IMG/VR virus record: IMGVR_UViG_2684622582_000004
Direction: 5' to 3' (one strand)
Source of the DNA: a virus
Lineage: Duplodnaviria; Heunggongvirae; Uroviricota; Caudoviricetes
DNA length: 35,256 nucleotides
Notes under the pieces: generated by a model
What the model was told of the DNA's origin: nothing
The model's database searches: none
The model's input: the letters and a program-made list of their open reading frames with translations, nothing else
Position numbers and translations under genes: made by a program
Shown here: positions 1 through 35,256 of the stretch, piece after piece
Numbering within the stretch: position 1 is the stretch's first letter
Layout: each line of letters begins with the position of its first letter

Positions 1-1215
1 TTATTTTTCAACCTCTGACAGGGGTAAGTAATGAGATGTCTGTAATGTCAAACTCTCTATCTCAAAGGAAATGTTGCTGATATTTTGACCTGCAAATTGC
101 GGATGCCACTCAGCGCCAAGGAATAACATTTCCGCAGAAGTAGCAACTATAGGGTCAATAGCATTAAGATAATGTAACTTATCAGGTGCGCTGTGTAACA
201 GTAACCACTGCAACTCCACTGAAGGATTTGTAAAATGTTCTAATAAATGAAAGTTATTATGTAGTACGCTTAGTAAAAAACTGGTTTCGTATACTTCCGT
301 TACATATTTCCACCCCTGATATTCAGGTGTATTTTCATAAACAATACCCATACCTTCACAATCACTATGTCGAACTGCTTGTGGTGATAATAGTTGCAAA
401 AGAGACAAAACATCGTCCGCATATTTTTTAACTGGATGACGATTTTGCTTACCTTTTATTTGATCAATTTCAAGTGAATCACCAACAACATTGAGAGCAA
501 TAGTAACATGAGGAATATTATTATTATCACGCAAACTGAATAACCGTAATTTATGTTGCTCAATTTGATTTGCATAATACTCACCATAACCACCGGTAAG
601 ATTTTTTCGATCATCAAACTGGCCTACGCAATGTTGCATATGCCATGATTCATAAGCCATTTCACGACGAAGGTTCGAATGACTGGCATCAAACTCAACA
701 ATTTTTCCGTCTGGCACATCAAGTATTGACTTTACAGTATTTTGTTCACTCGGCTGCCACCCTTTCTCGCGTCGTTGAAGCATCTTTTCATGCTCTTCTT
801 CACGCATTCTGAACGCAACGTAGCAGGTTATGCGCTGTAGTTTTGATTCCAGACGGGTACCACATTTCCTGGAAAGAAATTCCACCAACTCCCGTTCTTT
901 GGTTAATATTTGTTGATGATCGGTTTCGATATAATAAAGTGTCGCAGTTGATACTGAGGCAGTATTAAACTTCGATACCAGCCATTCCGGGATTACATCA
1001 TCATTTTTATTAAACAGTGAATATTCTGCAAGCGAGTTAATTTGTTGCACCATTGGAAAGTCACTAATTAGCCATCGATAAAAATGGTTGAGTAACCATT
1101 TTTGGATGGTCTCATTATCCTGGCGAAACAGACTTCTTTGCAAAATTGCTGTTTTTACTTCCGGGGCATTAATTACATCCCTTGCATTATAATTCTGGTG
1201 AATATTTCCAGTCAT
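1..1215 (-). CDS. hypothetical protein, 404 aa, AT-rich accessory gene of unknown function
   Basis: ATG at 1215-1213, TAA at 3-1. A hand-counted 60-nt sample (1-60) is ~35% GC versus >50% in neighbouring yegQ. No family recognised by eye. The gene ends at the window edge so upstream partners are unseen. Confidence 0.55.
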   Translation of the reverse strand: MTGNIHQNYNARDVINAPEVKTAILQRSLFRQDNETIQKWLLNHFYRWLISDFPMVQQINSLAEYSLFNKNDDVIPEWLVSKFNTASVSTATLYYIETDHQQILTKERELVEFLSRKCGTRLESKLQRITCYVAFRMREEEHEKMLQRREKGWQPSEQNTVKSILDVPDGKIVEFDASHSNLRREMAYESWHMQHCVGQFDDRKNLTGGYGEYYANQIEQHKLRLFSLRDNNNIPHVTIALNVVGDSLEIDQIKGKQNRHPVKKYADDVLSLLQLLSPQAVRHSDCEGMGIVYENTPEYQGWKYVTEVYETSFLLSVLHNNFHLLEHFTNPSVELQWLLLHSAPDKLHYLNAIDPIVATSAEMLFLGAEWHPQFAGQNISNISFEIESLTLQTSHYLPLSEVEK

Positions 1216-1702
1216 AACATCCGCCCGTGTTTATTATATCACTCAAAGCAATAATTGTTGACTATAGATTTTTTATCTAAATCAGCATGGTTGCAGGTAC
1301 ATACTCAAGTAAGCCACTCAAGAAAATAACGTAAACTCAATAGTGGCAGCGTCACAAACTTTGGAAATTATGTCTTATATTTGCAGTTTATTTTAGTGAA
1401 TAATTGAGATAAATGACATTATTTTACATCCTCAATAATTCAGGCTGTAAGAGGACGGCAAATACATTCATAATTATCAGGGGATGAACATTCAGGAAAG
1501 TAGTCAGTATCGTCAACTTTTTCTTTTATCACTACATGAAGATTTCGTGTAGATACTCCCATCTCTGCCACTTCTCCCCTCACATTTACACTGGAGCTAA
1601 ACCCGCCGATTGCGCTACAATGCCCGCCCTTAAAGTGGGGGCACTCCCCTAACCGCTTCATCAGGTGAAGCGGCTCTGACCTGTCATCAGAACGAGAGAA
1701 TT

Positions 1703-3064
1703 ATGTTTAAACCGGAACTCCTTTCCCCGGCGGGAACGCTGAAAAATATGCGTTACGCTTTCGCTTATGGCGCAGATGCTGTTTATGCGGGCCAGCCGCG
1801 TTACTCCCTGCGTGTACGCAACAACGAATTCAACCACGAAAATCTTCAGCTCGGCATCAATGAAGCCCACGCGCTGGGGAAAAAGTTTTATGTCGTGGTC
1901 AACATTGCACCGCACAACGCCAAGCTGAAAACCTTTATCCGTGACCTGAAACCGGTGGTGGAAATGGGGCCGGATGCGCTGATTATGTCCGATCCAGGGC
2001 TGATTATGCTGGTGCGTGAGCACTTCCCGGAAATGCCAATCCACCTCTCGGTACAGGCTAACGCCGTAAACTGGGCGACGGTGAAATTCTGGCAGCAAAT
2101 GGGTCTGACCCGCGTGATCCTCTCTCGCGAACTGTCACTGGAAGAGATTGAAGAGATCCGCAATCAGGTGCCGGATATGGAGATCGAAATCTTCGTTCAC
2201 GGCGCGCTGTGCATGGCCTACTCCGGTCGCTGCCTGCTCTCTGGCTATATCAACAAGCGCGACCCGAACCAGGGCACCTGCACCAACGCCTGCCGCTGGG
2301 AGTATAACGTCCAGGAAGGGAAAGAAGATGACGTCGGCAACATCGTACACAAGTACGAGCCGATTCCGGTGCAAAATGTTGAGCCGACGCTGGGTATCGG
2401 CGCGCCAACCGACAAAGTGTTTATGATCGAAGAAGCCCAGCGTCCGGGCGAGTATATGACCGCGTTTGAAGATGAGCACGGCACTTACATCATGAACTCG
2501 AAAGATCTGCGCGCCATCGCCCATGTTGAACGCCTGACCAAAATGGGCGTGCATTCGCTGAAAATCGAAGGCCGTACCAAATCTTTCTACTATTGCGCAC
2601 GCACCGCGCAGGTTTACCGTAAAGCTATCGATGACGCCGCTGCGGGCAAACCGTTCGATACCAGCCTGCTGGAAACTCTGGAAGGTCTGGCGCATCGTGG
2701 CTATACCGAAGGTTTCCTGCGTCGTCATACCCACGACGATTATCAGAACTACGAATACGGTTATTCGGTTTCTGACCGTCAGCAGTTTGTTGGTGAGTTT
2801 ACCGGTGAGCGCAAGGGGGAGCTCGCGGCGGTAGCGGTGAAAAATAAATTCTCCGTTGGCGACAGCCTTGAGCTGATGACGCCGCAAGGCAACATTAACT
2901 TTACCCTTGAGCACATGGAAAACGCCAAAGGTGAAGCAATGCCGGTCGCACCAGGCGATGGTTATACTGTGTGGCTCCCGGTGCCGCAGGATCTTGAGCT
3001 AAATTACGCGCTGCTGATGCGTAATTTCTCCGGGGAAACCACGCGTAACCCCCACGGTAAGTGA
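1703..3064 (+). CDS. yegQ: peptidase U32 family protein YegQ (tRNA-modification TrhP-like)
   Basis: 453-aa ORF with ATG at 1703. The sequence (MFKPELLSPAGTLKNMRYAFAYGADAVYAGQPRYSLRVRN...) matches my recollection of E. coli YegQ. Synteny yegQ-cyaR-ogr is as in E. coli K-12. Confidence 0.87.
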   Translation: MFKPELLSPAGTLKNMRYAFAYGADAVYAGQPRYSLRVRNNEFNHENLQLGINEAHALGKKFYVVVNIAPHNAKLKTFIRDLKPVVEMGPDALIMSDPGLIMLVREHFPEMPIHLSVQANAVNWATVKFWQQMGLTRVILSRELSLEEIEEIRNQVPDMEIEIFVHGALCMAYSGRCLLSGYINKRDPNQGTCTNACRWEYNVQEGKEDDVGNIVHKYEPIPVQNVEPTLGIGAPTDKVFMIEEAQRPGEYMTAFEDEHGTYIMNSKDLRAIAHVERLTKMGVHSLKIEGRTKSFYYCARTAQVYRKAIDDAAAGKPFDTSLLETLEGLAHRGYTEGFLRRHTHDDYQNYEYGYSVSDRQQFVGEFTGERKGELAAVAVKNKFSVGDSLELMTPQGNINFTLEHMENAKGEAMPVAPGDGYTVWLPVPQDLELNYALLMRNFSGETTRNPHGK

Positions 3065-3148
3065 TTAATTTCGATTATTTTTCCCGGATGGAAAATTCTT
3101 AGAAACCGATCACATACAGCTGCATTTATTAAGGTTATCATCCGTTTC

Positions 3149-3235
3149 GCTGAAAAACATAACCCATAAAATGCTAGCTGTACCAGGAACCACCTCCTTA
3201 GCCTGTGTAATCGCCCTTACACGGGCTTATTTTTT
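3149..3235 (+). ncRNA. cyaR: CyaR (RyeE) Hfq-dependent small RNA
   Basis: Sequence GCTGAAAAACATAACCCATAAAATGCTAGCTGTACCAGGAACCACCTCCTTAGCCTGTGTAATCGCCCTTACACGGGCTTATTTTTT matches remembered E. coli cyaR. It ends in a terminator hairpin (stem 3201-3210 / 3217-3226) plus a U-run. It lies between yegQ and an ogr homolog as in K-12. Confidence 0.8.
3209..3235. repeat. prophage att core copy at the ogr end (AATCGCCCTTACACGGGCTTATTTTTT)
   Basis: 27-bp segment repeated at 34755-34781 with a single mismatch (G at 3213 versus T at 34759). It matches my recollection of the 27-bp P2 attP core (AATCTCCCTTACACGGGCTTATTTTTT). Confidence 0.8.
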
Positions 3236-3299
3236 ACGCGTAATACAATGAAATAAAAGGATTTATTTCTGGTCACGTCCACACATTGACCACATCGAC

Positions 3300-3323
3300 A
3301 AAAAAGCCCCTCGACTGAGGGGC
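3300..3323 (-). terminator. rho-independent terminator downstream of ogr
   Basis: Stem GCCCCTC (3306-3312) / GAGGGGC (3317-3323) with loop GACT, followed on the minus strand by six U (complement of A 3300-3305). Confidence 0.6.
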
Positions 3324-3336
3324 TTCCTGTTTGTAA

Positions 3337-3555
3337 TTACATCCACATAATTTGCTGCCCTGACGGCAACGGGTGCGGTCTTACGGCGTGGACTTCTCCC
3401 GGCTTCACGATGTATCGCTGTACCGACTCATAAGTGATGAACGTGGCGCTGCAATTCACGTTCTGACACTGGTGATAACGCTCTTTTGTCGTGTCAGTGA
3501 TATAGCGGCTTGTACGCGCATGTGCGGCATGCTGGCATAAAGGACAATGAAACAT
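3337..3555 (-). CDS. ogr: Ogr late-gene transcriptional activator (C4 zinc finger), 72 aa
   Basis: MFHCPLCQHAAHARTSRYITDTTKERYHQCQNVNCSATF... with a C-x2-C...C-x4-C zinc finger. ATG at 3555 (the ORF-track start at 3618 is TTG). Length matches P2 Ogr. Confidence 0.9.
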   Translation of the reverse strand: MFHCPLCQHAAHARTSRYITDTTKERYHQCQNVNCSATFITYESVQRYIVKPGEVHAVRPHPLPSGQQIMWM

Positions 3556-3636
3556 CGCGAGCACCTCTTCCGGTTTTGTTGATGGTGCCATTTTAGTTAA
3601 TTTATCCTTATAAAACAAACAGATAAAATAAAAACA

Positions 3637-4800
3637 TCACTCATCATCTTCTGTTTCGTACTCCACATCAGAAAGCCTGACCTCAAGCTCCAAGGACGTC
3701 GTGAAGCCGCTATTATTCAGAAAATGTGTCACCTTAGTGATTGTCCAGTCCTGCTCGTCTATGACGCGCTTAAAGCCTGACACTTTAACCGGTGTTTCCG
3801 TGTAAATATCAGCACGACCGGTAGCCAGACTGATGGAGAACTCCGCAACGCCCCGTTGCAGCTTATCCCACTTCGCCTGAGCGGCGCGCATGGCCTGCGC
3901 TTTCGTGGCATATACCGTGGTCAGGGCAAAAACGTTGTCAGCCTCACCGGCCATGTATTCACCTTCACGCGCTTCCGGTACTTTAGGCGCTTTCTTCTGC
4001 CTGACCGGTTTCGCGTTCGGGTGCTCCAGTGCGCGCAGGTGTTTCTCTTTCTTTTTGCGTTTCAGTTTTACCTTCTGCTTTTGCGGTTTCGGGTCTTTGG
4101 TGTGTAACCACTTTGCCGTTACGCCTGTATAGGCTCCGCGGTCAGCAATCGCAAAATGATGACGGTCGCCGTCGCTGCGGGTGATGGTAATCTGCGGGAT
4201 TTTTTTACCGCTGGCCGTCACCCCCTGCCCCGCTTTGAGAAACAGCAGTTTTCCCATTTTTACCGACACCTCACCGCCGTTGCGTTCAGCAAGACGGGTC
4301 AGGAATTTCGCATCAGACTCCTGCGACTGGTCGATGTGCGGGATTTTAATTCCTGCCAGTGACGGCGCGACACTGGCTTCCAGCCTGTTACGGGAGGCTA
4401 TCGCCTCAACAATCGCACCGAGCGTGGTGTCATGCCATGAGCCTTCACGGCGGGAATTGAGCGTCCCGCGAAAATCTGCACTCCGGGCGCGGATGGTGAC
4501 CACATCCGGTGCGCCCCGGTGTTCAACCTCATCAACGGTGAATTTCCCTTTGCATACCAGGGCAAAACCTTTCCAGCCGATATACACCGTCAGGACAGCG
4601 CCACGAACCGGCAGCCCGACCTGCCCGTCGGTATCGTTCAGTTCAATATCAAGCTGGTCAGCCTCAAAGCCCCGGTTATCCGTCAGGGTCATACTCATCA
4701 GACGGTCGCTGATATTGCCGGTAATATCCCTGCTGTCGAGCATCAGCATGTAATCCGGCGTCAGCGTACTGCCTGCATCAAATGTCAGTGCATCCAGCAT
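3637..4800 (-). CDS. D: tail protein D (P2 gpD-like), 387 aa
   Basis: Position next to ogr and length identical to P2 gpD. Its ATG overlaps the U stop (TAATG). Confidence 0.87.
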   Translation of the reverse strand: MLDALTFDAGSTLTPDYMLMLDSRDITGNISDRLMSMTLTDNRGFEADQLDIELNDTDGQVGLPVRGAVLTVYIGWKGFALVCKGKFTVDEVEHRGAPDVVTIRARSADFRGTLNSRREGSWHDTTLGAIVEAIASRNRLEASVAPSLAGIKIPHIDQSQESDAKFLTRLAERNGGEVSVKMGKLLFLKAGQGVTASGKKIPQITITRSDGDRHHFAIADRGAYTGVTAKWLHTKDPKPQKQKVKLKRKKKEKHLRALEHPNAKPVRQKKAPKVPEAREGEYMAGEADNVFALTTVYATKAQAMRAAQAKWDKLQRGVAEFSISLATGRADIYTETPVKVSGFKRVIDEQDWTITKVTHFLNNSGFTTSLELEVRLSDVEYETEDDE

Positions 4801-5279
4801 TATTCCGCCCCCGTCATCCCCGTGAATTTAGTCGCCATACTGCCAGCCTTACCGATGAGCGATTCTGCCTGTTTACCGATATCGCCATAAAGCGCGGCCA
4901 GTGATTCATCCACGCGGGTGAGTGACAGCGTAAAATCAATTTTCCGGGGTGTGCCGTCTGCAAAGAAAATACTCCCTGTTTCACTCACCCTGCTGATGAC
5001 ATACATGCCGTAAATCATGCCTGTGCCATCCAGCAACGGCCACGCCCGGCCTTCCTCTGCCATCAGTCTGAGCGTGGTCATCGTCAGCTTGCCGCCGGTC
5101 AGTTCGGGATAAAGCACACCGGCAAGCGTCATGTTTTCCTCACCAACGCCGAGAAACTGGTAGGCATCCCGTTTACCGATACGGGAATTTGACGGCCAGC
5201 GATAATCTGATTCACGCTGCATGGTCTGGTGTGGCAGCGTCTGGCGCATAAAAACAAACATACCTAACGCGAGCATCAT
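4800..5279 (-). CDS. U: tail protein U (P2 gpU-like), 159 aa
   Basis: Synteny and P2-matching length. Confidence 0.87.
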   Translation of the reverse strand: MMLALGMFVFMRQTLPHQTMQRESDYRWPSNSRIGKRDAYQFLGVGEENMTLAGVLYPELTGGKLTMTTLRLMAEEGRAWPLLDGTGMIYGMYVISRVSETGSIFFADGTPRKIDFTLSLTRVDESLAALYGDIGKQAESLIGKAGSMATKFTGMTGAE

Positions 5280-5293
5280 TTTTCGTCACCTCC

Positions 5294-7741
5294 TTAACCG
5301 TCATGCATCATGCTGGCACGGGCGCGCGCACGTTTATCCCGCTCGTATTTTTCGAGCGCATCCTGTAACTGGCGGTCAAGCTGTGTCCCCGGTGCAGTAC
5401 CACCCGTCAGGCTGATGTGATATTCGTTTTTACTCTGGTCCACATAAGAGCGGCCAGCCGGTGCCGTGACCGGCTGATAAGCCTGATAACCTGCATAAGA
5501 GCTGGTCGCCGGAATATAACCACCGCTGCCATACGTGGCGGCTTGAGTTCTGGCGGCGGTCTGGTCAAGTGTGTCTGACTCTTTGTTGATAACACCGAGT
5601 TTTTCCAGTACCCAGTCAATACCACTGCGCAGTTTGTTGAACGCATTAAGCGGCAGCATCAGCGCGTCAGCCAGTGCCTGCCCGAACATGACGCCCGTGT
5701 CACGGCAACGGTTCAGGGTGTCCTGGGTAGCTTTGACCGGGGCAATCAGGTTTTTAAACCACTGCCACGCGGCCTGTAACTTTTCACCCAGCCAGTCAAA
5801 CACCGGCTTAAGTGGCGTGAACAGTTCCCCCACTGGCGCAAATGCTGCTTTCAGCCCTTCAACCACACCGCCAAAGAATGCGCTGACAGGCTCCCAGTAT
5901 TTACGGATAAGCAACGCCCCGGCGACAATGGTGGCCACCACGGCCACAACCGGCCAGCTAATCGCCCCGATGGCGGTCATAACAGCACTGCCAACCGTCG
6001 TGAAGACTGCCCCCATTGCGCCTGCTGCCGCGATGATGGCATTAATGCCGGTGATAACCGGCCAGGCTACAAGACCAATTGCACCGATGATGCCAGTAAG
6101 CGCCAGTGCACCACCGACAATAAGGCCGATGGTTGACGCCAGTGATTTGTTTTTCTGGATCCAGCCGTCGAGTTTTAACACATACTTTGTGGCCGTCTGC
6201 GTGAGCTTACGCAGTGCGCCTGCCTGCTGGTCAAACAGGTCAGTCCCCACCGCCTCATAAGCGGACTGAAACTCCTTAAAGTCACCGCCGAGGTTGTCCT
6301 GCATGATATTTACCAGCTCTGCGGTCTTTCCGTCTGAGGCTTTAAACGCAGCGGTCAGTTTGTCCAGCTTTCCGGTTGAGGCGGCAGTCATCAGCACGGC
6401 GGCGGCTGAACTGGCCTCCTCCCCGAAAATGGTTTTCATGTATTCAGCCTGCTGGGCAGTACCGAGCCGGTTTTTCTCAAAGCTGGCCTGCATTTCTTTC
6501 AGAATGGTAAATACTGGCCGGGTGTTTCCCTTACTGTCTGAGGTTTTCACGCCAAGCTCTTTCAGTGCATCCCATGCTTTTCCCGTCGGTGCCTGCAGGC
6601 GGCTTAACACGGCACGGCTTCCCGTCCCCGCCATTGAACCGGTAATTTTTGCATCATGCAGCGCCCCGACCATTGCGGCGGTTTCTTCAATGCTGACACC
6701 AGCATTTTTTGACACAGGTGCGGCATAGGTCAGCGCATCGCTCATGCCATCAAAATCGGCGGCGGTTTTGTTCATCGTCATGGAGAGAACATCCCCGATA
6801 TGAGCGACCTTATCGTTTGAAAGCTGAAAGGCGGATTTCATCCCCATCAGCAGGGCGGCGTTTTCTTCCATCGTGCGGCGGTTCGCCAGCGCCATGTTCA
6901 GCGTGACCGGCGTTGCCGCCTGAATGGCATCAACATCCCCACCCGCTTTCGCGATGATAATCTGTGCACCGGCTGCATCATCTGCCGAGGCGGCGGTATT
7001 GTCGCCGAGCTGGCGCGCCTGCTTGCGTAGCGCGGCCATTTCGGCAGAGTCTTTTTCCACACCGAGCACGGCCTGTAATTCTGAGTTTTTCTGCGCAAAC
7101 TCATAACCGGGCATCAGCAGCTTAACTCCGGCCATCGTTCCCGCCGCCGCAATACCCACACCGGCAGCGCCCACCGAGGCCATATTTCCGGCCAGTTCCT
7201 TTCCGACCTGATAACGCTGTTTTACTGCATTAAGTTTTGCCTGTTGCGCACTGACACGCGCCAGCGCATCACGCTGACGGTTAAGCTGTGTGGTGGTTTC
7301 GCTGATACGATTTTTCAGCCCTCGTTCATCATGCGCCAGATTACGGGTATTAATACCCGCCTGACTCAATTCCTGACGCTGGCGCTGTACCGACAATCTC
7401 AGGCTGTTATATTTCGCCTGTAACTCAGACGCGTTTTTACGCGCGGCTTCCATTGCCTTTGCCTGTGCATTTGTCGGTCGTTCAGTATTTGTAAACTGGA
7501 CAGCCAGAGCTGCGGCTTCCTGTCTGGCTTTTTTCAGTTCCTGACCAGTCACGGCTAGCTGTGCACTGGTCTTGCGGAATCCCTCAATACGGGATGCGTG
7601 ACCGTTCAGCTCGCGCAGCGATTTTTGTGTTTCCCGGATGTCCCCCGACAGCGACTTACTCGCTGTGCGGATGGATTTAAACGGGCGGGATGCCTGGTCA
7701 ACAGCCCTGAGCAATACCTTTAATTTTACATTGTTACTCAT
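5294..7741 (-). CDS. T: tail tape-measure protein (P2 gpT-like), 815 aa
   Basis: Long Ala/Gln-rich coiled-coil-like N-terminal part and hydrophobic Gly/Ala-rich middle, typical of tape-measure proteins. Position between E/E' and U; P2 gpT length. Confidence 0.88.
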   Translation of the reverse strand: MSNNVKLKVLLRAVDQASRPFKSIRTASKSLSGDIRETQKSLRELNGHASRIEGFRKTSAQLAVTGQELKKARQEAAALAVQFTNTERPTNAQAKAMEAARKNASELQAKYNSLRLSVQRQRQELSQAGINTRNLAHDERGLKNRISETTTQLNRQRDALARVSAQQAKLNAVKQRYQVGKELAGNMASVGAAGVGIAAAGTMAGVKLLMPGYEFAQKNSELQAVLGVEKDSAEMAALRKQARQLGDNTAASADDAAGAQIIIAKAGGDVDAIQAATPVTLNMALANRRTMEENAALLMGMKSAFQLSNDKVAHIGDVLSMTMNKTAADFDGMSDALTYAAPVSKNAGVSIEETAAMVGALHDAKITGSMAGTGSRAVLSRLQAPTGKAWDALKELGVKTSDSKGNTRPVFTILKEMQASFEKNRLGTAQQAEYMKTIFGEEASSAAAVLMTAASTGKLDKLTAAFKASDGKTAELVNIMQDNLGGDFKEFQSAYEAVGTDLFDQQAGALRKLTQTATKYVLKLDGWIQKNKSLASTIGLIVGGALALTGIIGAIGLVAWPVITGINAIIAAAGAMGAVFTTVGSAVMTAIGAISWPVVAVVATIVAGALLIRKYWEPVSAFFGGVVEGLKAAFAPVGELFTPLKPVFDWLGEKLQAAWQWFKNLIAPVKATQDTLNRCRDTGVMFGQALADALMLPLNAFNKLRSGIDWVLEKLGVINKESDTLDQTAARTQAATYGSGGYIPATSSYAGYQAYQPVTAPAGRSYVDQSKNEYHISLTGGTAPGTQLDRQLQDALEKYERDKRARARASMMHDG

Positions 7742-10319: not shown

Positions 10320-11162
10320 TTATTGACAATCATCAATTCTGGAATGATCAAAATCATCATATCGAATTATAGTCTGGTTGACTGTATCTATTGTTGGTGT
10401 CATTTCTGTTATAATATCCTGATAACCTAAAGAGTTAAATACATTTACTAAGGCCTCACACCGAAGGGCCGTAGCAATTACAAAATTATAAATTGCCAGC
10501 CGTTTATTTTCTTGTTTAACTGCAAGAATGAATTCGATAGCAGTAGTTTCATCACTTTGGATTGCATTATATAGAGATACTATATTTACCATATCATCAG
10601 AGAATGTATGTATTGAATCACAAAGGGGAACGTAATGGGCATGATAGTGTGTTTCCCAGCCAATTAATTCAAAAAGTTTTCTGGTTCCTGGATATTCAGG
10701 TGTATTTGGCCACAATCTATTAAATAGATCAGTTAGTTCTTTTCCCATGCGAATCCTTTCATTTGCTGCTGGATTAGTCATTCCTTTGGATTTTAAACAC
10801 TCCAGCCACCGTTTTCCATTACTATGAACTAATTTCTTACTAGCCTTGAGTAATGCTTGTGCATTTTCGCCATCATCTATTGCTATATAAAATTGATTGG
10901 CAGCCTGTTCTATTATAACCCTAGCTAATACTTCCGATGCTGAAAAGGCTCCTATATTCAAAGAAGAGATAGCCTGATTACTAAGTTCATTCAGTACATT
11001 AAAGTACTGTAAGACCATCAATTTTTGTTCCACACCCTTTAGGTTGTCTATTTTATTTTTATGCTCCTCAAATTTTGCATGGATATATTTATTTATCGCG
11101 GCTATTTTTTTTACATCTTCGTCAAGATCAAACGGGCAACGTCCAAACAATTCTTTTTTCAT
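10320..11162 (-). CDS. hypothetical protein, 280 aa, AT-rich cargo gene in the P2 Z/fun moron slot (function unknown)
   Basis: ATG at 11162 with AGGAGA SD 7 nt upstream and a TATAAT -10 at 11206-11201 (minus strand). Hand-counted sample lines are ~28-42% GC versus ~55% in flanking tail genes. No family motif recognised. Confidence 0.7.
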   Translation of the reverse strand: MKKELFGRCPFDLDEDVKKIAAINKYIHAKFEEHKNKIDNLKGVEQKLMVLQYFNVLNELSNQAISSLNIGAFSASEVLARVIIEQAANQFYIAIDDGENAQALLKASKKLVHSNGKRWLECLKSKGMTNPAANERIRMGKELTDLFNRLWPNTPEYPGTRKLFELIGWETHYHAHYVPLCDSIHTFSDDMVNIVSLYNAIQSDETTAIEFILAVKQENKRLAIYNFVIATALRCEALVNVFNSLGYQDIITEMTPTIDTVNQTIIRYDDFDHSRIDDCQ

Positions 11163-11583: not shown

Positions 11584-12111
11584 TTATTGCGGCATTTCCG
11601 GCCATTCAGGATTTGCAGGATCCACACGGCTGACCAGAACACTGTAGCGTTCCCATGCTTCCAGTCGGCTACGCTCCTCATCTGTTGCCATATTCAGTCT
11701 GACAGAGCGTTCCAGTGGCTGAATGATAGTTTCAGCTTCGGAAAGCAAAGCTGACTTCTGTAATTCCGCCAGTTGCAGCTGTTCGTCTGCCGTATAAATC
11801 CGCTTAATCACAGCACCATCCTTAAACATCCATTTACCTGAGTCATCAGCACGTCGGTTGGCGGTAATATCAGGAACCTCGACAACGCTAAAACCTTCAG
11901 GGTTAAGCGTTGAAGCATCTCTGGTGATGCCGACAATTATATTATTCTCGTCGTAAACAATCTTTATCGTGTCTTCCTGAAAATTACTTACTTCCTCATA
12001 CCAGTTTTTTCCCTCTTCGGACCATAACCAGATAACATCAAAATTTTTTGTCAGTTGATATTGGGCAACAGTTTTTGGATTACCCGCAGTAATATTTTTT
12101 AAATGCTGCAT
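11584..12111 (-). CDS. G: tail fiber assembly chaperone (P2 gpG-like), 175 aa
   Basis: Immediately downstream of the tail fiber gene; P2 gpG length. Confidence 0.85.
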
Positions 12112-12114
12112 AAA

Positions 12115-14856
12115 TTACACCTGTGCAACGTTATACCATGTGCCATTGATGTATTTTTGTATTGGTCTGAATACTGCGGGGTCATCACCATCGACTTCAC
12201 CGACAATACCAAGCCCTGTAATTACGTGCCCTGCTTTCTCATACATCACCCCTTTCTGCATGGTCTGAACAACACGAGTGCCAAGTCTGACATCTCTCAC
12301 ATAGCGGGAATCAAAGTTACCGTAATCCGAAGGATTAACACGCCCCGTAATATTTATGGTTTTATTACTTTGAATGCTTCCGGAGACAAAGCGCATAACA
12401 TGGACGCTATTAGCATAAACATCCAGATTACCATCACCATTTTGTTTAAAGCCCGTGTCATTATCACCCAAAACAATCGAATTACCGCCAAGAGCACTGG
12501 ATGTTCCGATGCCCAGTGCACCATTCAATTGACCACCAGATAACGACAGTGCACCGACATCTCCCGCTGTAGGTTTTCGCGTTGTGGTATAAAACTCAGA
12601 CCAGTCAGCCTCGAATCCGTAACCATCACGAGCAGAACGATAAAAAATACCGCCGTTCTTATAATTAACGCGGAACTGGGCTGCGGGACAACTTCCTTCA
12701 CCGATATTAAAATGAAGAATTAACGTTGATGCCCCACCAGTAGTTGCGTTATAGGCTCCGCTACTCCAGTTCCATCCAACGGCTTTATCATTCGCAACGG
12801 TGTCTCCTGTTTTTCCTGAAGCAAATGCACCAATATTTTTCGGCGTCAGGTTAATATCTGATGTTCCATCAAACGAAACGTTATTAATTTTACGGGCTGT
12901 TTTCAGCTTTGTTGCTGTCGCCGCATTGCCGGACAGTTCACCAGAGAGGCCTGCACTGAATGTCTGTTTTGCCTCCCATGTCTGGGCTTCGTCGATAATT
13001 GGTAGCCGACGAATATTGAAGCTACGCTCCCCAGGATTGCCATATAAGCGGACTGTAAAAAAACGATAGTTGGTTTTGTTTGAGGTGCTGCGCCATACCT
13101 GCATTGAACGGGCGACACCTCCACCTTCACTGGGGCCAACAGTGATATTTATCAGGTTAGTATCAATGACGCCCCATTCCATCCCATCGGGGATATTGGT
13201 CATATCGGAGAGTCTGACAGTTATCATGCTGCCCGGCACAAAGTCGTAGGTCTGCCAGTCCAGACTGGATAACCTGTCGGTAACACCGCCGACACCTAAT
13301 TTAGTGAGTAATGATTTTGAGTTGTAAACTTCCGCCCATTCCCCCCAGTCAGCTTCACCGCTGGCACGAGTTCGTTGAAATGTCCGGTTTTTATAGGCAT
13401 CCGTTGCAGAAACTGTCGTATATGTCTGGATATACGATTCAATATCACAACGTTTTTTCACTTCAACTATTGAGCCAACAGCAAGATCTTTAGAGTCGGT
13501 GACTGGTGCGTTTGTGGCCTGTTTCGTGACGCTATAAATACCAGGCTTTAAAAGGTCATCAAGATCCCCTGAATAAGTCCATCCCGTGGACTGATACCCA
13601 ACAGCAATCCAGTCCTCCCATTGTGGATTCTCTGCATCCCATGAGGCAGTCAGTCCGCGAATGTACATAGTCCCACTACGGGTGGTGTAACGTTGCATTC
13701 TCCCATACAGACCGCCTTCAAAGACTTCCAGAATACCCTGACCAAAGCTCCCGTCCTCCGGGAAATGACGTTCAAATGAGGCTATTGATGTACTGCTATT
13801 GCGCCATATTCCCAGGTGTTCCGCGCCACCTAAAGAATTCAGGTCAATTGACGTGCTTAATGGTCGAGTCCCGCTTGTAATAACTCTCCATGCACTCCAT
13901 GTTGGACTGGCTGGGTTCCATTCTGCATCAAGCATCCGAATGTAAATATTACCGGTTCGGGTGGTGTAGCGTTGTGTGCAGTGAAAGCGACCAGCATTGA
14001 ATACTTCCAGAACCCCATTGCCTTTATCTTCAGGGTAACCAGACTCTGGTTTTGCAGTGGATTGTGACGGACATGACCACGTTCCAAGATATTTTTCTTC
14101 TGGGCCATAGGAGTCAAGATTGTCAGTGGTTGGAATCATTCCATTGTGTTTCATAAACGTCAGGCTGGTAACGCCAATATTGTCCAGAAAAGCTGATTTA
14201 TCCTGGATATCTGCACCGTTCTGATTTTTCGCCAGACGTGAATTTGCGTTGTCATTTGCTGCCTTGACCGCTTTTGGCGTTGCCGCCAGCTTTTCACTGG
14301 TGCTGTTTGTTGCACTGCTTAACTGAGTAAAACCTTTTTCTGTCAGCGTGGCGTCAGGATGGCGGCGGGACTGCTCATGCTCTGCGATTTTGTCATCGAC
14401 GTAATCCTGCGTCGCCATCACCGTGCTGGCATCAATACTCAGCTCAACGGACGCCACGTTGCTGAGAATAATAACCATGCGGCAGGTCTGCGCACGTCCG
14501 GAGCCTTCAGCCAGTTCTGGCTTATAGCTTTCTGCCATGTTGGATACCGCAATCAGTGTTCCGGCATCGTCATACAGACCAAGTTCACGCATCCAGAAGC
14601 CGCCCACTTCTGGCGGTACAACCAGTTCAGCCACGATATAGTTTTTATTCTTGTTATCCACGCTGACTTTATTCAGAGCGTGACGCCAGACCTCATGCAC
14701 CAGTTTCGTCTGACCGGCATCCGGCACCGGCAATTTGCCATTACCGTCACCCACGGCCATTGCAGACAGGTTTACTTTTTTCCCGCCGGGGACAGTGGCG
14801 GCTGCCAGCTTTGCGGCTCCGGCAGTAGTGATAACGGTTTTAAATTTCGTGCTCAT
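12115..14856 (-). CDS. H: tail fiber protein (P2 gpH-like, mosaic), 913 aa
   Basis: N-terminus (MSTKFKTVITTAGAAKLAAAT...) and C-terminus (...NFDSRYVRDVRLGTRVVQ...FRPIQKYINGTWYNVAQV) resemble P2 gpH as I recall it. The central region differs and contains an internal tandem domain repeat. Confidence 0.85.
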   Translation of the reverse strand: MSTKFKTVITTAGAAKLAAATVPGGKKVNLSAMAVGDGNGKLPVPDAGQTKLVHEVWRHALNKVSVDNKNKNYIVAELVVPPEVGGFWMRELGLYDDAGTLIAVSNMAESYKPELAEGSGRAQTCRMVIILSNVASVELSIDASTVMATQDYVDDKIAEHEQSRRHPDATLTEKGFTQLSSATNSTSEKLAATPKAVKAANDNANSRLAKNQNGADIQDKSAFLDNIGVTSLTFMKHNGMIPTTDNLDSYGPEEKYLGTWSCPSQSTAKPESGYPEDKGNGVLEVFNAGRFHCTQRYTTRTGNIYIRMLDAEWNPASPTWSAWRVITSGTRPLSTSIDLNSLGGAEHLGIWRNSSTSIASFERHFPEDGSFGQGILEVFEGGLYGRMQRYTTRSGTMYIRGLTASWDAENPQWEDWIAVGYQSTGWTYSGDLDDLLKPGIYSVTKQATNAPVTDSKDLAVGSIVEVKKRCDIESYIQTYTTVSATDAYKNRTFQRTRASGEADWGEWAEVYNSKSLLTKLGVGGVTDRLSSLDWQTYDFVPGSMITVRLSDMTNIPDGMEWGVIDTNLINITVGPSEGGGVARSMQVWRSTSNKTNYRFFTVRLYGNPGERSFNIRRLPIIDEAQTWEAKQTFSAGLSGELSGNAATATKLKTARKINNVSFDGTSDINLTPKNIGAFASGKTGDTVANDKAVGWNWSSGAYNATTGGASTLILHFNIGEGSCPAAQFRVNYKNGGIFYRSARDGYGFEADWSEFYTTTRKPTAGDVGALSLSGGQLNGALGIGTSSALGGNSIVLGDNDTGFKQNGDGNLDVYANSVHVMRFVSGSIQSNKTINITGRVNPSDYGNFDSRYVRDVRLGTRVVQTMQKGVMYEKAGHVITGLGIVGEVDGDDPAVFRPIQKYINGTWYNVAQV

Positions 14857-14866
14857 TGTTTCTCAC

Positions 14867-15397
14867 TTATCCGGGATAAACAGTAATAACATCACCATCA
14901 CAGACCACACCGCCTGTATACAGATAGCCGGGAATGTCCTGGATAATGTTCAGGCCAATAAGGTGGCGGCTTGCAGGTTTGGCATCAGCAATCAGCCGTT
15001 CCATTTCCTGATACATTGCCTCTGTGATACCGCTTTCCAGTACACCAATATCAAGCCGGAAGGTGCCGGGCGGGTCACTGGTTTCCCACCACTCCGTCAC
15101 GTTGATGAGATAGCCCAGCGGCTCCACCACACGCCGGATTGCACCTATAGTGCCTTTATGACAGTGGATGAAATAGGCATCGCGGATAACGGCGCGTTTG
15201 GTCGCTTCCGGCCACTTTTCATCCCATCTGTCGACCGAAAACGCCCACGCCAGCCACGGCAGCAGATTTGCCGGGCAGGTGTCCGGGTTCCACAGCTCAC
15301 GAATACTGACCGGCGTTTTTTCAATTTCCGCACAGGCTTTTGCAGCGGCGACTTCAAGCGGTGATGAGCCGGTCGGCAGCAGTCGCGAATCACTCAT
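14867..15397 (-). CDS. I: baseplate assembly protein (P2 gpI-like), 176 aa
   Basis: Synteny and P2 length. Confidence 0.85.
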   Translation of the reverse strand: MSDSRLLPTGSSPLEVAAAKACAEIEKTPVSIRELWNPDTCPANLLPWLAWAFSVDRWDEKWPEATKRAVIRDAYFIHCHKGTIGAIRRVVEPLGYLINVTEWWETSDPPGTFRLDIGVLESGITEAMYQEMERLIADAKPASRHLIGLNIIQDIPGYLYTGGVVCDGDVITVYPG

Positions 15398-23722: not shown

Positions 23723-25495
23723 ATGACCATCACCACAGACACCACTCTTTTACACGACCCGCGTCGTCAGGCGGCGCTGCTGTACTGGCAGGGGTTTTCC
23801 GTGCCGCAGATTGCCGCCATGTTGCAGATGAAACGCCCGACGGTGCAGAGCTGGAAACAGCGCGACGGCTGGGACAGCGTTGCCCCCATCAGCCGTGTCG
23901 AAATGAGTCTGGAAGCGCGGCTGACCCAGCTCATCATCAAACCGCAGAAAACCGGCGGTGACTTCAAGGAAATTGACCTGCTCGGACGCCAGATTGAACG
24001 ACTGGCACGGGTAAACCGTTACAGTCAGACCGGCAACGAGGCAGACCTTAATCCGAACGTCGCTAACCGCAACAAAGGCGGGCGGCGCAAACCGAAAAAG
24101 AATTTTTTCAGTGACGAGGCCATCGAAAAGCTGGAGCAGATTTTCTTTGAGCAGTCTTTCGAATATCAGTTGCACTGGTATCGCGCCGGGCTTGAGCACC
24201 GCATCCGCGATATCCTGAAATCCCGCCAGATTGGCGCGACGTTTTATTTTTCCCGCGAGGCGCTGCTGCGCGCCCTGAAAACCGGCCATAACCAGATTTT
24301 TCTGTCGGCCAGTAAAACGCAGGCGTATGTGTTCCGTGAATACATCATCGCCTTTGCCCGGCTGGTTGACGTTGACCTGACCGGTGACCCGATTGTCCTG
24401 GGCAATAACGGCGCAAAACTGATTTTTCTCGGCACCAACTCCAACACCGCACAGAGCCATAACGGCGACCTGTACGTCGACGAGATTTTCTGGATCCCGA
24501 ATTTTCAGGTACTGCGTAAGGTGGCATCAGGTATGGCCTCACAGAGTCACCTGCGCTCGACCTATTTCTCCACCCCGTCCACGCTGGCGCACGACGCCTA
24601 CCCGTTCTGGTCGGGTGAACTGTTCAACCGGGGACGCGCCAGCGCCGCCGAACGCGTGGAAATCGACGTCAGTCATAACGCCCTTGCCGGTGGGCTTCTC
24701 TGTGCGGACGGCCAGTGGCGGCAGATTGTCACCATTGAGGACGCACTGAAAGGCGGCTGCACGCTGTTCGACATTGAGCAGCTCAAACGCGAAAACAGCG
24801 CCGACGATTTTAAAAACCTGTTCATGTGTGAATTTGTTGACGACAAGGCGTCGGTATTCCCGTTCGAGGAGCTGCAACGCTGCATGGTCGACACGCTGGA
24901 AGAATGGGAAGACTATGCGCCGTTTGCCGCCAATCCGTTCGGCTCCCGCCCGGTATGGATTGGTTACGACCCGTCACACCGTGGCGACAGCGCCGGATGC
25001 GTGGTGCTGGCACCGCCGGTGGTGGCCGGTGGCAAATTCAGAATACTTGAGCGTCACCAGTGGAAAGGCATGGACTTTGCCACCCAGGCGGAATCCATCC
25101 GCAAACTCACCGAAAAATACAACGTCGAATACATCGGTATTGATGCCACCGGCCTCGGTGTCGGCGTGTTCCAGCTCGTGCGCTCGTTCTATCCCGCCGC
25201 GCGCGATATCCGCTACACGCCGGAAATGAAAACCGCAATGGTGCTCAAGGCAAAAGACGTCATCCGCCGTGGCTGTCTGGAATATGACGTCAGCGCCACC
25301 GACATCACCAGCTCGTTTATGGCTATCCGCAAGACCATGACCAGCAGCGGACGCAGCGCCACTTATGAGGCCAGCCGCAGCGAGGAAGCCAGCCACGCCG
25401 ACCTCGCCTGGGCGACCATGCACGCCCTGTTAAATGAGCCACTCACCGCCGGTATCAGCACCCCGCTGACATCCACCATTCTGGAGTTTTACTGA
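23723..25495 (+). CDS. P: terminase large (ATPase) subunit (P2 gpP-like), 590 aa
   Basis: ATG at 23723 with GAGGT SD (the ORF-track start at 23693 is TTG); 590 aa as in P2. Its stop overlaps the Q start (TGATG). Confidence 0.9.
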   Translation: MTITTDTTLLHDPRRQAALLYWQGFSVPQIAAMLQMKRPTVQSWKQRDGWDSVAPISRVEMSLEARLTQLIIKPQKTGGDFKEIDLLGRQIERLARVNRYSQTGNEADLNPNVANRNKGGRRKPKKNFFSDEAIEKLEQIFFEQSFEYQLHWYRAGLEHRIRDILKSRQIGATFYFSREALLRALKTGHNQIFLSASKTQAYVFREYIIAFARLVDVDLTGDPIVLGNNGAKLIFLGTNSNTAQSHNGDLYVDEIFWIPNFQVLRKVASGMASQSHLRSTYFSTPSTLAHDAYPFWSGELFNRGRASAAERVEIDVSHNALAGGLLCADGQWRQIVTIEDALKGGCTLFDIEQLKRENSADDFKNLFMCEFVDDKASVFPFEELQRCMVDTLEEWEDYAPFAANPFGSRPVWIGYDPSHRGDSAGCVVLAPPVVAGGKFRILERHQWKGMDFATQAESIRKLTEKYNVEYIGIDATGLGVGVFQLVRSFYPAARDIRYTPEMKTAMVLKAKDVIRRGCLEYDVSATDITSSFMAIRKTMTSSGRSATYEASRSEEASHADLAWATMHALLNEPLTAGISTPLTSTILEFY

Positions 25496-26529
25496 TGAGC
25501 AAGAAAAAAGGGAAAACACTGCAACCTGCGGCAAAAAAAATGACCGCCAGCGCCCCGAAAATGGAGGCATTCACCTTTGGCGAACCGGTGCCGGTACTCG
25601 ACCGCCGTGACATTCTGGATTACGTCGAATGCATCAGTAACGGCAGATGGTATGAGCCACCGGTCAGCTTTACCGGTCTGGCAAAAAGTCTGCGTGCTGC
25701 CGTGCATCACAGCTCACCGATTTACGTCAAACGTAATATTCTGGCTTCAACGTTTATCCCGCACCCGTGGCTTTCCCAGCAGGATTTCAGCCGCTTTGTG
25801 CTGGATTTTCTGGTGTTCGGTAATGCGTTTCTGGAAAAGCGTTACAGCACCACCGGTAAGGTCATCAGACTGGAAACCTCACCGGCAAAATATACCCGCC
25901 GTGGCGTGGAGGAGGATGTTTACTGGTGGGTGCCGTCCTTCAACGAGCCGACAGCCTTCGCGCCCGGTTCCGTGTTTCACCTGCTGGAGCCCGATATTAA
26001 TCAGGAGCTGTACGGCCTGCCGGAATATCTCAGCGCCCTTAACTCTGCCTGGCTGAATGAGTCAGCCACGCTGTTCCGCCGCAAGTATTACGAAAACGGC
26101 GCACATGCCGGATACATCATGTACGTCACCGATGCCGTGCAGGACCGCAACGATATCGAAATGCTTCGCGAAAACATGGTGAAGTCGAAAGGCCGCAACA
26201 ACTTTAAAAACCTGTTTCTCTATGCCCCGCAGGGGAAAGCCGACGGCATTAAAATTATCCCGCTCAGTGAAGTGGCGACGAAGGACGATTTTTTTAATAT
26301 CAAAAAAGCCAGCGCCGCTGACCTGCTGGACGCGCACCGCATCCCCTTTCAGTTGATGGGCGGCAAGCCGGAGAACGTCGGGTCGCTGGGTGATATTGAG
26401 AAAGTGGCAAAGGTCTTTGTCCGCAATGAGCTTATCCCGCTACAGGACAGGATCCGCGAGATAAACGGCTGGCTCGGTCAGGAGGTCATCCGCTTTAAAA
26501 ACTACTCACTGGACACTGACAACGGCTGA
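25495..26529 (+). CDS. Q: portal protein (P2 gpQ-like), 344 aa
   Basis: Synteny and P2 length. Confidence 0.9.
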   Translation: MSKKKGKTLQPAAKKMTASAPKMEAFTFGEPVPVLDRRDILDYVECISNGRWYEPPVSFTGLAKSLRAAVHHSSPIYVKRNILASTFIPHPWLSQQDFSRFVLDFLVFGNAFLEKRYSTTGKVIRLETSPAKYTRRGVEEDVYWWVPSFNEPTAFAPGSVFHLLEPDINQELYGLPEYLSALNSAWLNESATLFRRKYYENGAHAGYIMYVTDAVQDRNDIEMLRENMVKSKGRNNFKNLFLYAPQGKADGIKIIPLSEVATKDDFFNIKKASAADLLDAHRIPFQLMGGKPENVGSLGDIEKVAKVFVRNELIPLQDRIREINGWLGQEVIRFKNYSLDTDNG

Positions 26530-28701: not shown

Positions 28702-28820
28702 CGTTTTCACCTTTTTCAGTATAAATTTGCACGCATTATTATTAGCAACATAATCATCAATAGTTAACACATGCAGATAGACAGCAATTTTACTATTATG
28801 CAACAAATTAAATCAGATGT

Positions 28821-31103: not shown

Positions 31104-31368
31104 ATGAGCCAAAAGCCTCTGAACAACGCTTGCTGAGTTGCTCAACCTGCGCGTTTAAATCAGCAAAAGATTTTGCGCTTCCGGTCAGAATATCGTGATG
31201 CATCAGGCCGGAAACGAGCTGGCCTAATTTCGGGTAATAACCAACCACCGCCAGCCATTCCTGACCGGCGTTTTTACCGCTTTCCGCTCTCTTTTTCTCG
31301 TGGAGAATAAACTGAAAGCTGTCACTGGTAACGACATAACGTTCGCCAATTTCAATACGAATACTCAT
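31093..31368 (-). CDS. small early protein (P2 orf83 position), 91 aa
   Basis: Synteny only. Confidence 0.6.
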   Translation of the reverse strand: MSIRIEIGERYVVTSDSFQFILHEKKRAESGKNAGQEWLAVVGYYPKLGQLVSGLMHHDILTGSAKSFADLNAQVEQLSKRCSEAFGSYGR

Positions 31369-34675: not shown

Positions 34676-34754
34676 CGTTTAAGGGCTTTCAGTGGTAATT
34701 TATGCCGCTCAAACCCGCATTGTACCGTTGAAAGCCCCTACTGGTGACACCCTA

Positions 34755-34781
34755 AATCTCCCTTACACGGGCTTATTTTTT
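34755..34781. repeat. prophage att core copy at the int end (AATCTCCCTTACACGGGCTTATTTTTT)
   Basis: Direct repeat of 3209-3235 with one mismatch. Confidence 0.8.
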
Positions 34782-34938
34782 ATGTATAAGCCGTATCCTG
34801 GTAACCGTCTTCCATTGACCACATCGAAAGAATCTCCCTTCATAGCACGATGCCTTTCACTTATTGGCATCGTGCTCGCACAGGTTCCGGTTACGCACAG
34901 CCAGAACGCGCATGTTTGATGCTTACCAAAAAATATTC

Positions 34939-35256
34939 TCACTCTCCACATTTGAATGTCAGACGAGCGACGCCATGTAATCCTGCACCTTCTGTCTTCA
35001 GGTCAACTATCTGCATTTTTTTGCCCTGAGTAACACAGAAATGAACTGCATCATTTTTTACTATATTTTCTGCACCAGATATTCTACCCCTGGCTAAAGA
35101 AGCTTCGGCTTCGGTGTAGTATTGGTTATCGAGTTTACGCTGAATATTACTTTTATATGCAAGACCAAATTTACCGATACTTGTCTCATCATTATGTACA
35201 GCACACCCAGACATAAGAAAAACACTAATTAATGATATAGCAGCTATCTTTTTCAT
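34939..35256 (-). CDS. yegR: small lipoprotein (YegR-like), 105 aa
   Basis: Signal peptide with lipobox (MKKIAAISLISVFLMSGC). Position downstream of the cyaR/ogr locus as yegR in K-12. Identity is from memory and moderate. Confidence 0.6.
   Translation of the reverse strand: MKKIAAISLISVFLMSGCAVHNDETSIGKFGLAYKSNIQRKLDNQYYTEAEASLARGRISGAENIVKNDAVHFCVTQGKKMQIVDLKTEGAGLHGVARLTFKCGE

Follow-up and report, generated by a model that had tools for sequence, protein, structure and literature searches.

Gene H and the layout of its product

The window (the whole stretch of 35,256 nucleotides analysed) contained phage genes in the order V-W-J-I-H-G. Gene H lay between gene I (14867–15397) and gene G, as in P2, and was followed by the Caudo_TAP gene, in agreement with the annotations of phages L-413C and P2. 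Gene H is the L-413C-type tail fibre gene of a P2-like (Peduovirus) E. coli prophage. The features of genes H and G were as follows.

12115–14856, minus strand: gene H, L-413C-type tail fibre (receptor-binding) protein, 913 aa; ATG-start open reading frame, PHROG tail-fibre families
11584–12111, minus strand: gene G, tail fibre assembly protein (chaperone) for H; Pfam PF02413 Caudo_TAP, E 7e-34; PHROG 136
14404–14856, minus strand: aa 1–151, N-terminal tail-collar/baseplate-attachment domain, P2-type; PF12571 Phage_tail_fib, E 3e-57, full-length match
14224–14349, minus strand: aa 170–211, phage tail fibre repeat (helix-plus-turn rod), common to Mu S; PF03406 Phage_fiber_2, E 1e-20
13873–14121, minus strand: aa 246–328, knob domain 1; repeat alignment, five predicted beta-strands, structural matches
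13594–13845, minus strand: aa 338–421, knob domain 2; same basis as knob 1
13321–13566, minus strand: aa 431–512, knob domain 3, a diverged third copy; hhalign, three-knob HMM, 5–6 predicted strands
12982–13317, minus strand: aa 514–625, fourth beta-rich domain of the cassette; co-inherited with the knobs, aligned to T4 gp37 until ~aa 516
12832–12981, minus strand: aa 626–675, T-even-type fibre quasi-repeat containing the right recombination junction; 52% identity to T4 gp37 aa 57–106
12544–12837, minus strand: aa 674–771, Mu S′-like/gp37_C domain of the distal fibre; PDB 8ju3, Pfam PF12604 gp37_C, E 2.6e-5
12118–12543, minus strand: aa 772–913, C-terminal tip common to P2 H and Mu S; P2 H 472–669, Mu S (5yvq)

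The product of gene G was 89% identical to P2 gpG. As expected of a P2-type gpH, H carried PF12571 followed by Phage_fiber_2 repeats, and its Pfam matches were Phage_tail_fib, Phage_fiber_2, gp37_C and gp37_trimer; searching NCBIfam matched neither H nor P2 H. The part of the gene encoding aa 1–151 had a GC content of 53%, resembling the adjacent P2 backbone.

A prophage of E. coli IHE3034 was 99.9% identical to the window, whose backbone was 96.7% identical to L-413C, and the H allele (at least 95% nucleotide identity) was present in 32 complete E. coli genomes. PADLOC gave no match for the DUF5677 protein.

H and gpH of Yersinia phage L-413C (NP_839867; Garcia et al. 2008, Virology 372:85) were identical at 911 of 913 residues (99.8%). 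The L-413C protein is also 913 aa long, with I upstream and G downstream, and is the same mosaic relative to P2, its N-terminal 207 aa and C-terminal ~140 aa being P2-like; according to the summary in PMC7460101, Garcia et al. 2008 described it as a four-part mosaic. The two differences are D788 and S875 in L-413C against A788 and A875 in H, where H agrees with P2, and residue 875 falls within the equivalent of the host-range region HR2 of phage P88 (see below). The window also differs from L-413C in being an E. coli prophage with other accessory genes at the Z/fun locus. The near-identity of H and the window to an E. coli prophage agrees with a previous proposal (PMC11126057) that L-413C belongs among the phages of E. 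coli.

In P2 the gene order is the same as in the window, but gpH (NP_046775; NC_001895, 12734–14743) has 669 aa, the length given for it in the sequence-only reading of this DNA. That reading had described H as mosaic and enlarged relative to P2, with a P2-like N-terminal part and extreme C-terminus, and similarity to P2 was indeed found at the two ends only. Aa 1–207 of H were 84% identical (91% positives) to P2 gpH, and aa 772–913 were 52% identical (BLAST) to P2 gpH 472–669, the P2 tip having a 56-aa insertion; between aa 207 and 772 there was no significant match to P2 gpH. The middle of P2 gpH was Mu S-like (5yvq, E 4e-82) and, unlike H, contained no knob copies. The central region of H was absent from canonical P2 H by BLAST and HMM and so is no ordinary shaft common to all P2-like phages.

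Other parts of H resembled Mu S and S′ (PDB 5YVQ, 8JU3). Aa 167–246 matched Mu S residues 110–189, aa 674–771 matched the S′-specific residues 321–418 of 8ju3 (168 bits, E 2.7e-71), indicating homology, and aa 837–912 matched Mu S residues 425–503 of 5yvq (E 1e-32), while the knob cassette (aa 246–640) had no match in Mu S. In Mu, the tip is switched by an invertible segment. No alternative tip or assembly genes adjoining H and G were seen in the list of open reading frames of the window.

The knob repeat

Two diverged modules of ~60–70 aa had been noticed from the sequence at roughly 13597–14109, and two peptide strings had been quoted for them. Both strings occurred in H, from aa 275 and from aa 366 onward, and the position agreed with the first two knob copies. 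The duplication was real, but each module spanned ~83–85 aa and there were three copies. By segment-versus-segment BLAST, 37 of 83 residues (45%) were identical between aa 246–326 and aa 338–419 (E = 3e-22), ruling out chance similarity as the source of the repeat, and profile–profile alignment of knobs 1 and 2 gave a probability of 99.8% (E = 1e-30); the likeness of the two is far beyond chance. A self-BLAST of the whole protein returned the identity match only, and the repeat emerged from the comparison of segments.

Knob 3 aligned with knob 1 at a probability of 85.6% (E 5.6e-6) and with knob 2 at 63.5% (E 6.8e-5) in hhalign. It was not significant under an HMM built from the two sequences of knobs 1 and 2 (E 0.12), and profiles built from homologues were required. 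Under the three-knob HMM it scored E 2e-20, with a training set that partly included knob 3; T4 gp37, which was outside the training set, gave the same three matches, at 125–206, 217–299 and 310–391. With this HMM, all related fibres, T4 gp37 among them, showed three copies, and P2 H showed none. Searches of PDB sequences with H and with a profile of the cassette returned nothing for aa 246–640.

The name “pyocin knob” carried by homologues of H came from another source model, so membership was judged by fold. An AlphaFold monomer of H had a mean pLDDT of 66, with values mostly 70–89 for knobs 1 and 2 (72–86 for knob 1) and ~61–83 for knob 3. Five strands were predicted for aa 246–328, five for aa 338–421 and five or six for aa 431–512, i.e. 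~85-aa domains of antiparallel beta-sheet with loops between the strands. The top Foldseek matches of the H model were phi11 gp45 (5efv, E 1e-7), the R1 pyocin fibre (6cl5, E 1e-5) and the 80alpha RBP, and the best structural matches of the repeat were R-pyocin fibres, phi11 gp45, AS12 gp42 and T4 gp34. Judged by the predicted structure, with its likeness to solved R-pyocin knobs and to other knob-bearing proteins, the repeat of H is the known fibre “knob” fold. The knobs were 13–21% identical in sequence to R-type pyocin fibres (PDB 6CL5, 6CL6, 6CU2; Buth et al. 2018), which differ from H in having two knobs and a lectin-like foot in place of three knobs and a Mu S′/P2-type tip.

A fourth knob at aa 514–625 was rejected (hhalign probability below 1%; three-knob HMM, E = 3). 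The pLDDT of this domain, ~50 in the first model and 41 on average in a second AlphaFold run (aa 505–680), was too low for its fold to be called.

H is essentially the published L-413C fibre, and its repeat unit is a recognised mobile fibre domain; both were already known. “Pyocin knob” is among the mobile pseudo-domains of RBPseg (PMC12143355).

Exchange of cassette and tip, and receptor specificity

The H proteins of P24B2 and YpM50 were 99–100% identical to H over aa 1–207 and 641–913 but only 46–72% identical in the cassette. Nucleotide identity to P24B2/YpM50 dropped from 93–100% to ~50% near position 14140 of the window, just past the Phage_fiber_2 repeat (left junction), and was back to 98–100% from ~12970 downward (right junction). 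The H of P24A7b was 98–99% identical through aa 640 and unrelated beyond, nucleotide identity being gone below ~12880, and its assembly protein also differed. The sharp breakpoints near 14140 and 12970 indicated that the cassette and the C-terminal tip were exchanged independently. With these module boundaries and natural chimeras, junctions are already at hand for the engineering of P2-type or pyocin fibres, and the chimeras are a clean natural experiment on the share of the knob cassettes in host specificity.

Among cassette alleles, knob 2 was best conserved (69%, vs 46–49% for knobs 1 and 3), and variation was higher outside the predicted strands than within them (entropy 0.78 vs 0.56, p = 0.003). 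Variation concentrated in loops is also expected from general structural constraint.

The ~400-aa cassette was homologous to T4 gp37, the distal subunit of the long tail fibre, at aa 105–516 (44% identity over 467 aa, E 2e-134). As in H, three knobs are followed by the fourth domain in the same order. T4 gp37 differs in its N-terminus, which joins gp36 and not the baseplate, and in its receptor-binding needle and chaperones. In T4 gp37 the flanking fibre repeat comes before the cassette, in H after it. The distal half-fibre of T4 is a chain of globular domains with the receptor-binding needle at its end (PMC3004832), and the duplicated region of H corresponds to the beaded shaft of gp37, not to the receptor-binding tip.

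L-413C is a highly lytic, Y. pestis-specific diagnostic phage which on Y. pestis CO92 plates ~10^4-fold better than P2 vir1; its receptor is the LPS core, with a critical terminal GlcNAc, and P2 vir1 needs the same residue on Y. pestis (PMC3182234). The suggested host range unlike that of P2 is in line with the plating of the near-identical L-413C, but not with the shared need for this residue. Fusions of L-413C gpH bind Y. pestis (PMC7460101), and a pyocin fused to the L-413c fibre killed Y. pestis (Williams 2008, as cited in PMC11464564). For the L-413C protein, 99.8% identical to H, others have thus demonstrated Y. pestis binding and the need for LPS core, and the receptor of this particular prophage is presumably the same; because A788 and A875 differ, receptor findings for L-413C might not carry over in full.

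In P88, another P2-like phage (fibre of 764 aa), host range was assigned to the last ~50 aa, and a swap of a large upstream region (HR1) was without effect (PMC5285337). By alignment, the equivalent of the P88 host-range region HR2 was aa 865–895 of H, a mapping validated by P88 L730 and E744, which landed where PMC5285337 places them. The record of vB_YpM_50, with N- and C-terminal modules as in H and a cassette ~46–72% identical, lists Y. pestis EV76 as host.

These data make it probable that H forms a trimeric fibre of three independently exchangeable modules, with an ancient knob cassette and LPS specificity borne by the tip. The P2-type attachment domain and short rod repeat (aa 1–~240) would anchor the fibre to the baseplate. 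The three tandem ~85-aa knobs and the fourth beta-rich domain (aa ~240–630), homologous to the T4 gp37 segment, would most likely form a “beads-on-a-stick” shaft, whose exposed loops may make weak secondary contacts with sugars. The Mu S′/P2 H-like distal part (aa ~640–913) would depend for folding on the chaperone gpG encoded downstream and would bear the main determinant for the LPS-core receptor; within it, aa 772–913 are probably the chaperone-dependent trimerisation and receptor-specificity region. The tip thus appears to be the main determinant of specificity and the knobs appear to be shaft.

A receptor role for the knobs is nevertheless possible. Fibres that are otherwise 99–100% identical diverge most in knobs 1 and 3, variation clusters in the predicted loops, and Knob2 of the pyocin, the most diverse region of that fibre, was proposed to bind LPS and argued to contribute to target specificity (Buth et al. 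2018). The three-knob cassette might accordingly be an exchangeable second specificity module, more than a spacer, but we consider this unlikely. If true, the cassette could modulate the range of LPS cores or O-antigen contexts that the fibre accepts, e.g. in the discrimination of Y. pestis from Y. pseudotuberculosis by L-413C, much as in the model of two binding sites put forward for R-pyocin fibres. It is quite improbable that the tandem cassette is the primary receptor-binding region and that its exchange or duplication led to a host range unlike that of P2. The same observations, and the absence of such knobs from canonical P2 H, would fit that reading, but the homologous part of T4 gp37 lies far from its needle, the P88 determinants map to the HR2 equivalent with no change on swapping HR1, vB_YpM_50 combines another cassette allele and the same tip with Y. 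pestis EV76 as its recorded host, and L-413C and P2 vir1 depend on one and the same critical LPS residue on Y. pestis although P2 lacks the cassette.

That gene H belongs to a decaying prophage remnant with a fibre no longer functional is very improbable: its location in an E. coli chromosomal prophage would suit such a history, but the reading frame is intact and its product is two residues away from the fibre of a phage that forms plaques, the genes for the chaperone (G) and the baseplate (I, J, W and V) are likewise intact, and the same allele is kept in the 32 genomes mentioned above.

Age and spread of the knob cassette

Knobs 1 and 2 shared 54% nucleotide identity when codon-aligned, with third positions near saturation (43% third-position identity in conserved codons), indicating that the duplication is ancient; a single 38-nt stretch was detectable between the copies by blastn. 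The cassette was found in 228 phage records, with at least 80% of it covered in 222; it occurred in ~200 T-even phages and ~30 P2-like phage records. Judged from these sequences, the duplication is not specific to this phage lineage, and the cassette seems to have come ready-made by cassette exchange. Under the preferred reading of three exchangeable modules, the triplication of the knob would be older than the dispersal of the cassette to fibres of P2-like, T-even and Stf-annotated (“side tail fibre”) type, and this phage would have gained it when conserved fibre repeats recombined.

A recent, lineage-specific tandem duplication which stretched an originally P2-sized fibre, as the adjoining copies with 45% protein identity and the excess of 244 aa over P2 H might suggest, is effectively refuted by the nucleotide divergence between the copies, by the presence of all three copies, identically ordered, in T4 gp37 and ~200 T-even phages, and by the replacement of the whole P2 middle, in place of an insertion within it. 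The further step in the sequence-only reading, from duplication to a new host range, is weak in view of the independent exchange of cassette and tip and of the P88 determinants in the last ~50 aa.

Gene H and its repeated modules

An intact 913-aa ORF, gene H of a P2-like phage, was found downstream of P2-type genes I and J and upstream of gene G.

Tail fibre genes and domains of H
14867–15397: gene I, P2-type, upstream of H
12115–14856, minus strand: H, intact 913-aa ORF
11584–12111: G, 175-aa ORF downstream of H; tail fibre assembly protein (Caudo_TAP) with 89% identity to P2 gpG
H aa 1–151: Phage_tail_fib N-terminal domain, full-length match (E 3e-57)
H aa 170–211: Phage_fiber_2 repeat
H aa 681–756: gp37_C, weaker match
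H aa 806–854: gp37_trimer, weaker match

Dozens of PHROG tail-fibre families were also matched by H. By BLASTP, P2 gpH resembled H at aa 1–207 (84% identity) and aa 772–913 (52%, with a 56-aa insertion in P2), and no significant similarity to P2 gpH was detected between aa 207 and 772. A sequence-only reading of this DNA had described H as mosaic and enlarged, giving 669 aa for P2 gpH; that length was correct and the description holds, H being P2-like only in these two segments (913 versus 669 aa).

The same reading had quoted two diverged modules of ~60–70 aa. Both were present (aa 246–328 and 338–421; 45% identity over 83 residues, E 3e-22; 99.8% probability by comparison of homologue-built profiles), but the unit was ~85 aa long and occurred three times. 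The third copy (aa 431–512) was seen in the homologue consensus (motif LEV...QRYTT...W.EW) and by profile-profile comparison (85.6% and 63.5% probability, E 5.6e-6 and 6.8e-5). A three-copy HMM found exactly three copies in each related fibre examined and none in P2 H.

AlphaFold, run on a 35-sequence alignment, modelled aa 229–636 (pLDDT ~70–89 over the first two copies and ~61–83 over the third) with five or six beta-strands per module. Top-ranking Foldseek matches in PDB were 5efv (phi11 gp45, E 1e-7), 6cl5 (R1 pyocin fibre, E 1e-5) and the receptor-binding protein of 80alpha, and six top matches were carriers of the Knob domain of Buth et al. 2018 (AS12 gp42, R-pyocin fibres, phi11 gp45, T4 gp34 and phage K gp144). 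In this domain, five or six antiparallel strands form a sheet with outward-facing loops, and its two tandem copies in the pyocin fibre were attributed to duplication (PMC6116203). Many H homologues are named “pyocin knob domain-containing protein” at NCBI, and “Pyocin knob” is among the mobile pseudo-domains found in tail fibres by RBPseg (PMC12143355). An NCBIfam search gave no match, nor did the cassette sequence (the three knobs plus a fourth domain) match any solved structure. The fold of the fourth domain (aa 514–625) was not assignable from profile comparison, the three-copy HMM or AlphaFold models.

Age and spread of the duplication

Codon-aligned copies 1 and 2 were 54% identical in nucleotides and just 43% identical at third positions of conserved codons, and blastn detected one 38-nt stretch between them, so the duplication is old. 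The cassette (aa 226–636) was 44% identical to T4 gp37 aa 105–516 (E 2e-134), which carries the same three copies. By tblastn it was found in 228 phage records, the majority being T-even long-tail-fibre distal subunits (47–51% identity) and ~25–30 being P2-like phages (~60%); it was also present in a protein annotated as side tail fibre (Stf) of phage vB_EcoM-613R2. Full-length H proteins (911–919 aa) of the window architecture occurred in 30 phage records. The T4 distal half-fibre appears by EM as a chain of ~ten globular domains with a receptor-binding needle at its end (PMC3004832); given this and the homology to gp37, the cassette corresponds to part of the T4 beaded shaft. The duplication arrived within a widely shared cassette. 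Since it is much older than this phage and lies in a shaft-equivalent position, the earlier proposal that it implied a host range different from P2 was unsupported.

Mosaic structure and provenance of the fibre

H shared 911 of its 913 residues with gpH of Yersinia phage L-413C, whose backbone matched the window at 96.7% across ~21 kb, and a chromosomal prophage present in E. coli IHE3034 and MS7163 matched the H region at 99.9% identity. These matches, with the integrase and a host-like gene, identified the window as a prophage of E. coli in which the fibre allele is that of L-413C. Of 5426 complete E. coli genomes, 32 carried a closely related allele (nucleotide identity of 95% or more). L-413C gpH was described as a hybrid of four regions, P2-like over its first 207 and last 137 aa (Garcia et al. 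2008, as cited in PMC7460101), so a published protein was re-described here.

Prophage ends and codons distinguishing H from L-413C gpH
1–1215: PcfJ-like ORF, left end
1703–3064: peptidase U32 gene, apparently the host's, left end
33662–34675: integrase gene, tyrosine type, right prophage end
12493–12495: H codon 788, A (D in L-413C)
12232–12234: H codon 875, A (S in L-413C)

The P2-like backbone begins at ~3210–3250, the prophage ends being 1–3200 and 33662–35256. At both codons, the only protein differences, P2 H has the same residue as the window. The stretch ~11980–12250 (3′ end of H and 5′ part of G) was 89–93% identical in nucleotides to L-413C and 99–100% to vB_YpM_50, and is probably a further small recombination patch across the H/G boundary.

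Segment identities and sliding nucleotide identity, from which breakpoints were placed, divided H into three modules. Nucleotide identity to phages P24B2 and vB_YpM_50 was 93–100% from gene I to ~14140, 44–80% from ~14140 to ~12970, and 96–100% from there to the end of H. Their fibre proteins were 99–100% identical to H at aa 1–207 and 641–913, and the cassette was 49% (knob 1), 69% (knob 2), 46% (knob 3) and 72% (fourth domain) identical. H of phage P24A7b was 98–99% identical through aa 640 and unrelated beyond, with a different assembly protein (192 aa).

Natural chimera
P24A7b (Peduovirus, L006), 2501–5703: fibre region, attachment domain and knob cassette shared, C-terminal part different

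This chimera offers a ready-made test of module function. Both junctions fell at conserved fibre repeats, Phage_fiber_2 and a T-even-type repeat (aa 626–675, 52% identical to gp37 aa 57–106), which probably served as recombination anchors. GC content was 53–59% in the N-terminal H segment and genes I and J, 43–51% in the remainder of H and 44% in G, a drop consistent with foreign origin.

Function of the modules and accessory islands

Fluorescent L-413C gpH fusions bound Y. pestis cells (PMC7460101), and an R2-pyocin with a fused L-413c fibre killed Y. pestis (Williams 2008, as cited in PMC11464564). The Y. pestis LPS core is required by both L-413C and P2 vir1, terminal GlcNAc being critical and heptoses contributing (PMC3182234). 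In H, the N-terminal domain would dock on the baseplate and the cassette would form a rigid shaft of beads, with loops on the outside that may contribute weak contacts to sugars. A Mu S′-like domain (aa 674–771; 168 bits to 8ju3) and the P2/Mu S-like tip (aa 772–913) would fold with gpG's aid and be the main source of specificity. In P2-like phage P88, host range changed when HR2 was swapped (aa 716–746; L730 and E744 implicated) and stayed the same when the upstream HR1 was (PMC5285337), which argues for the tip as main determinant. HR2 aligned with H aa 865–895, a valid mapping because the alignment reproduced the published L730 and E744. As codon 875 lies within this region, the prophage may differ subtly in specificity from L-413C. 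A secondary binding role of the knobs is conceivable, since knobs 1 and 3 were the most variable segments among otherwise identical fibres and a specificity role was proposed for pyocin Knob2 by Buth et al. (PMC6116203), though we consider it unlikely.

Accessory ORFs
10320–11162, minus strand: protein of 280 aa with DUF5677 (Pfam E 5e-10) and a full-length match to PHROG 4167
26869–28806, minus strand: 645-aa ORF with matches to PDC-S39, a candidate defence system in PADLOC (E 3e-84), and to Pfam DUF7380 and DUF4209

Between G and FI, the DUF5677 ORF occupies an island of 34% GC. This position is the Z/fun accessory-gene locus of P2, which holds fun(Z) in P2 and an unrelated, oppositely oriented ORF of 259 aa in L-413C. 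PADLOC gave no match for this protein, possibly the product of an uncharacterised gene for lysogenic conversion or defence. Flanked by the portal gene (25495–26529) and a 774-aa ORF (28821–31145) taken as replication gene A by position and size, the 645-aa ORF lies in an island of 33–34% GC whose GC skew is strongly negative; we take this site to be the P2 old/tin accessory-gene hotspot.
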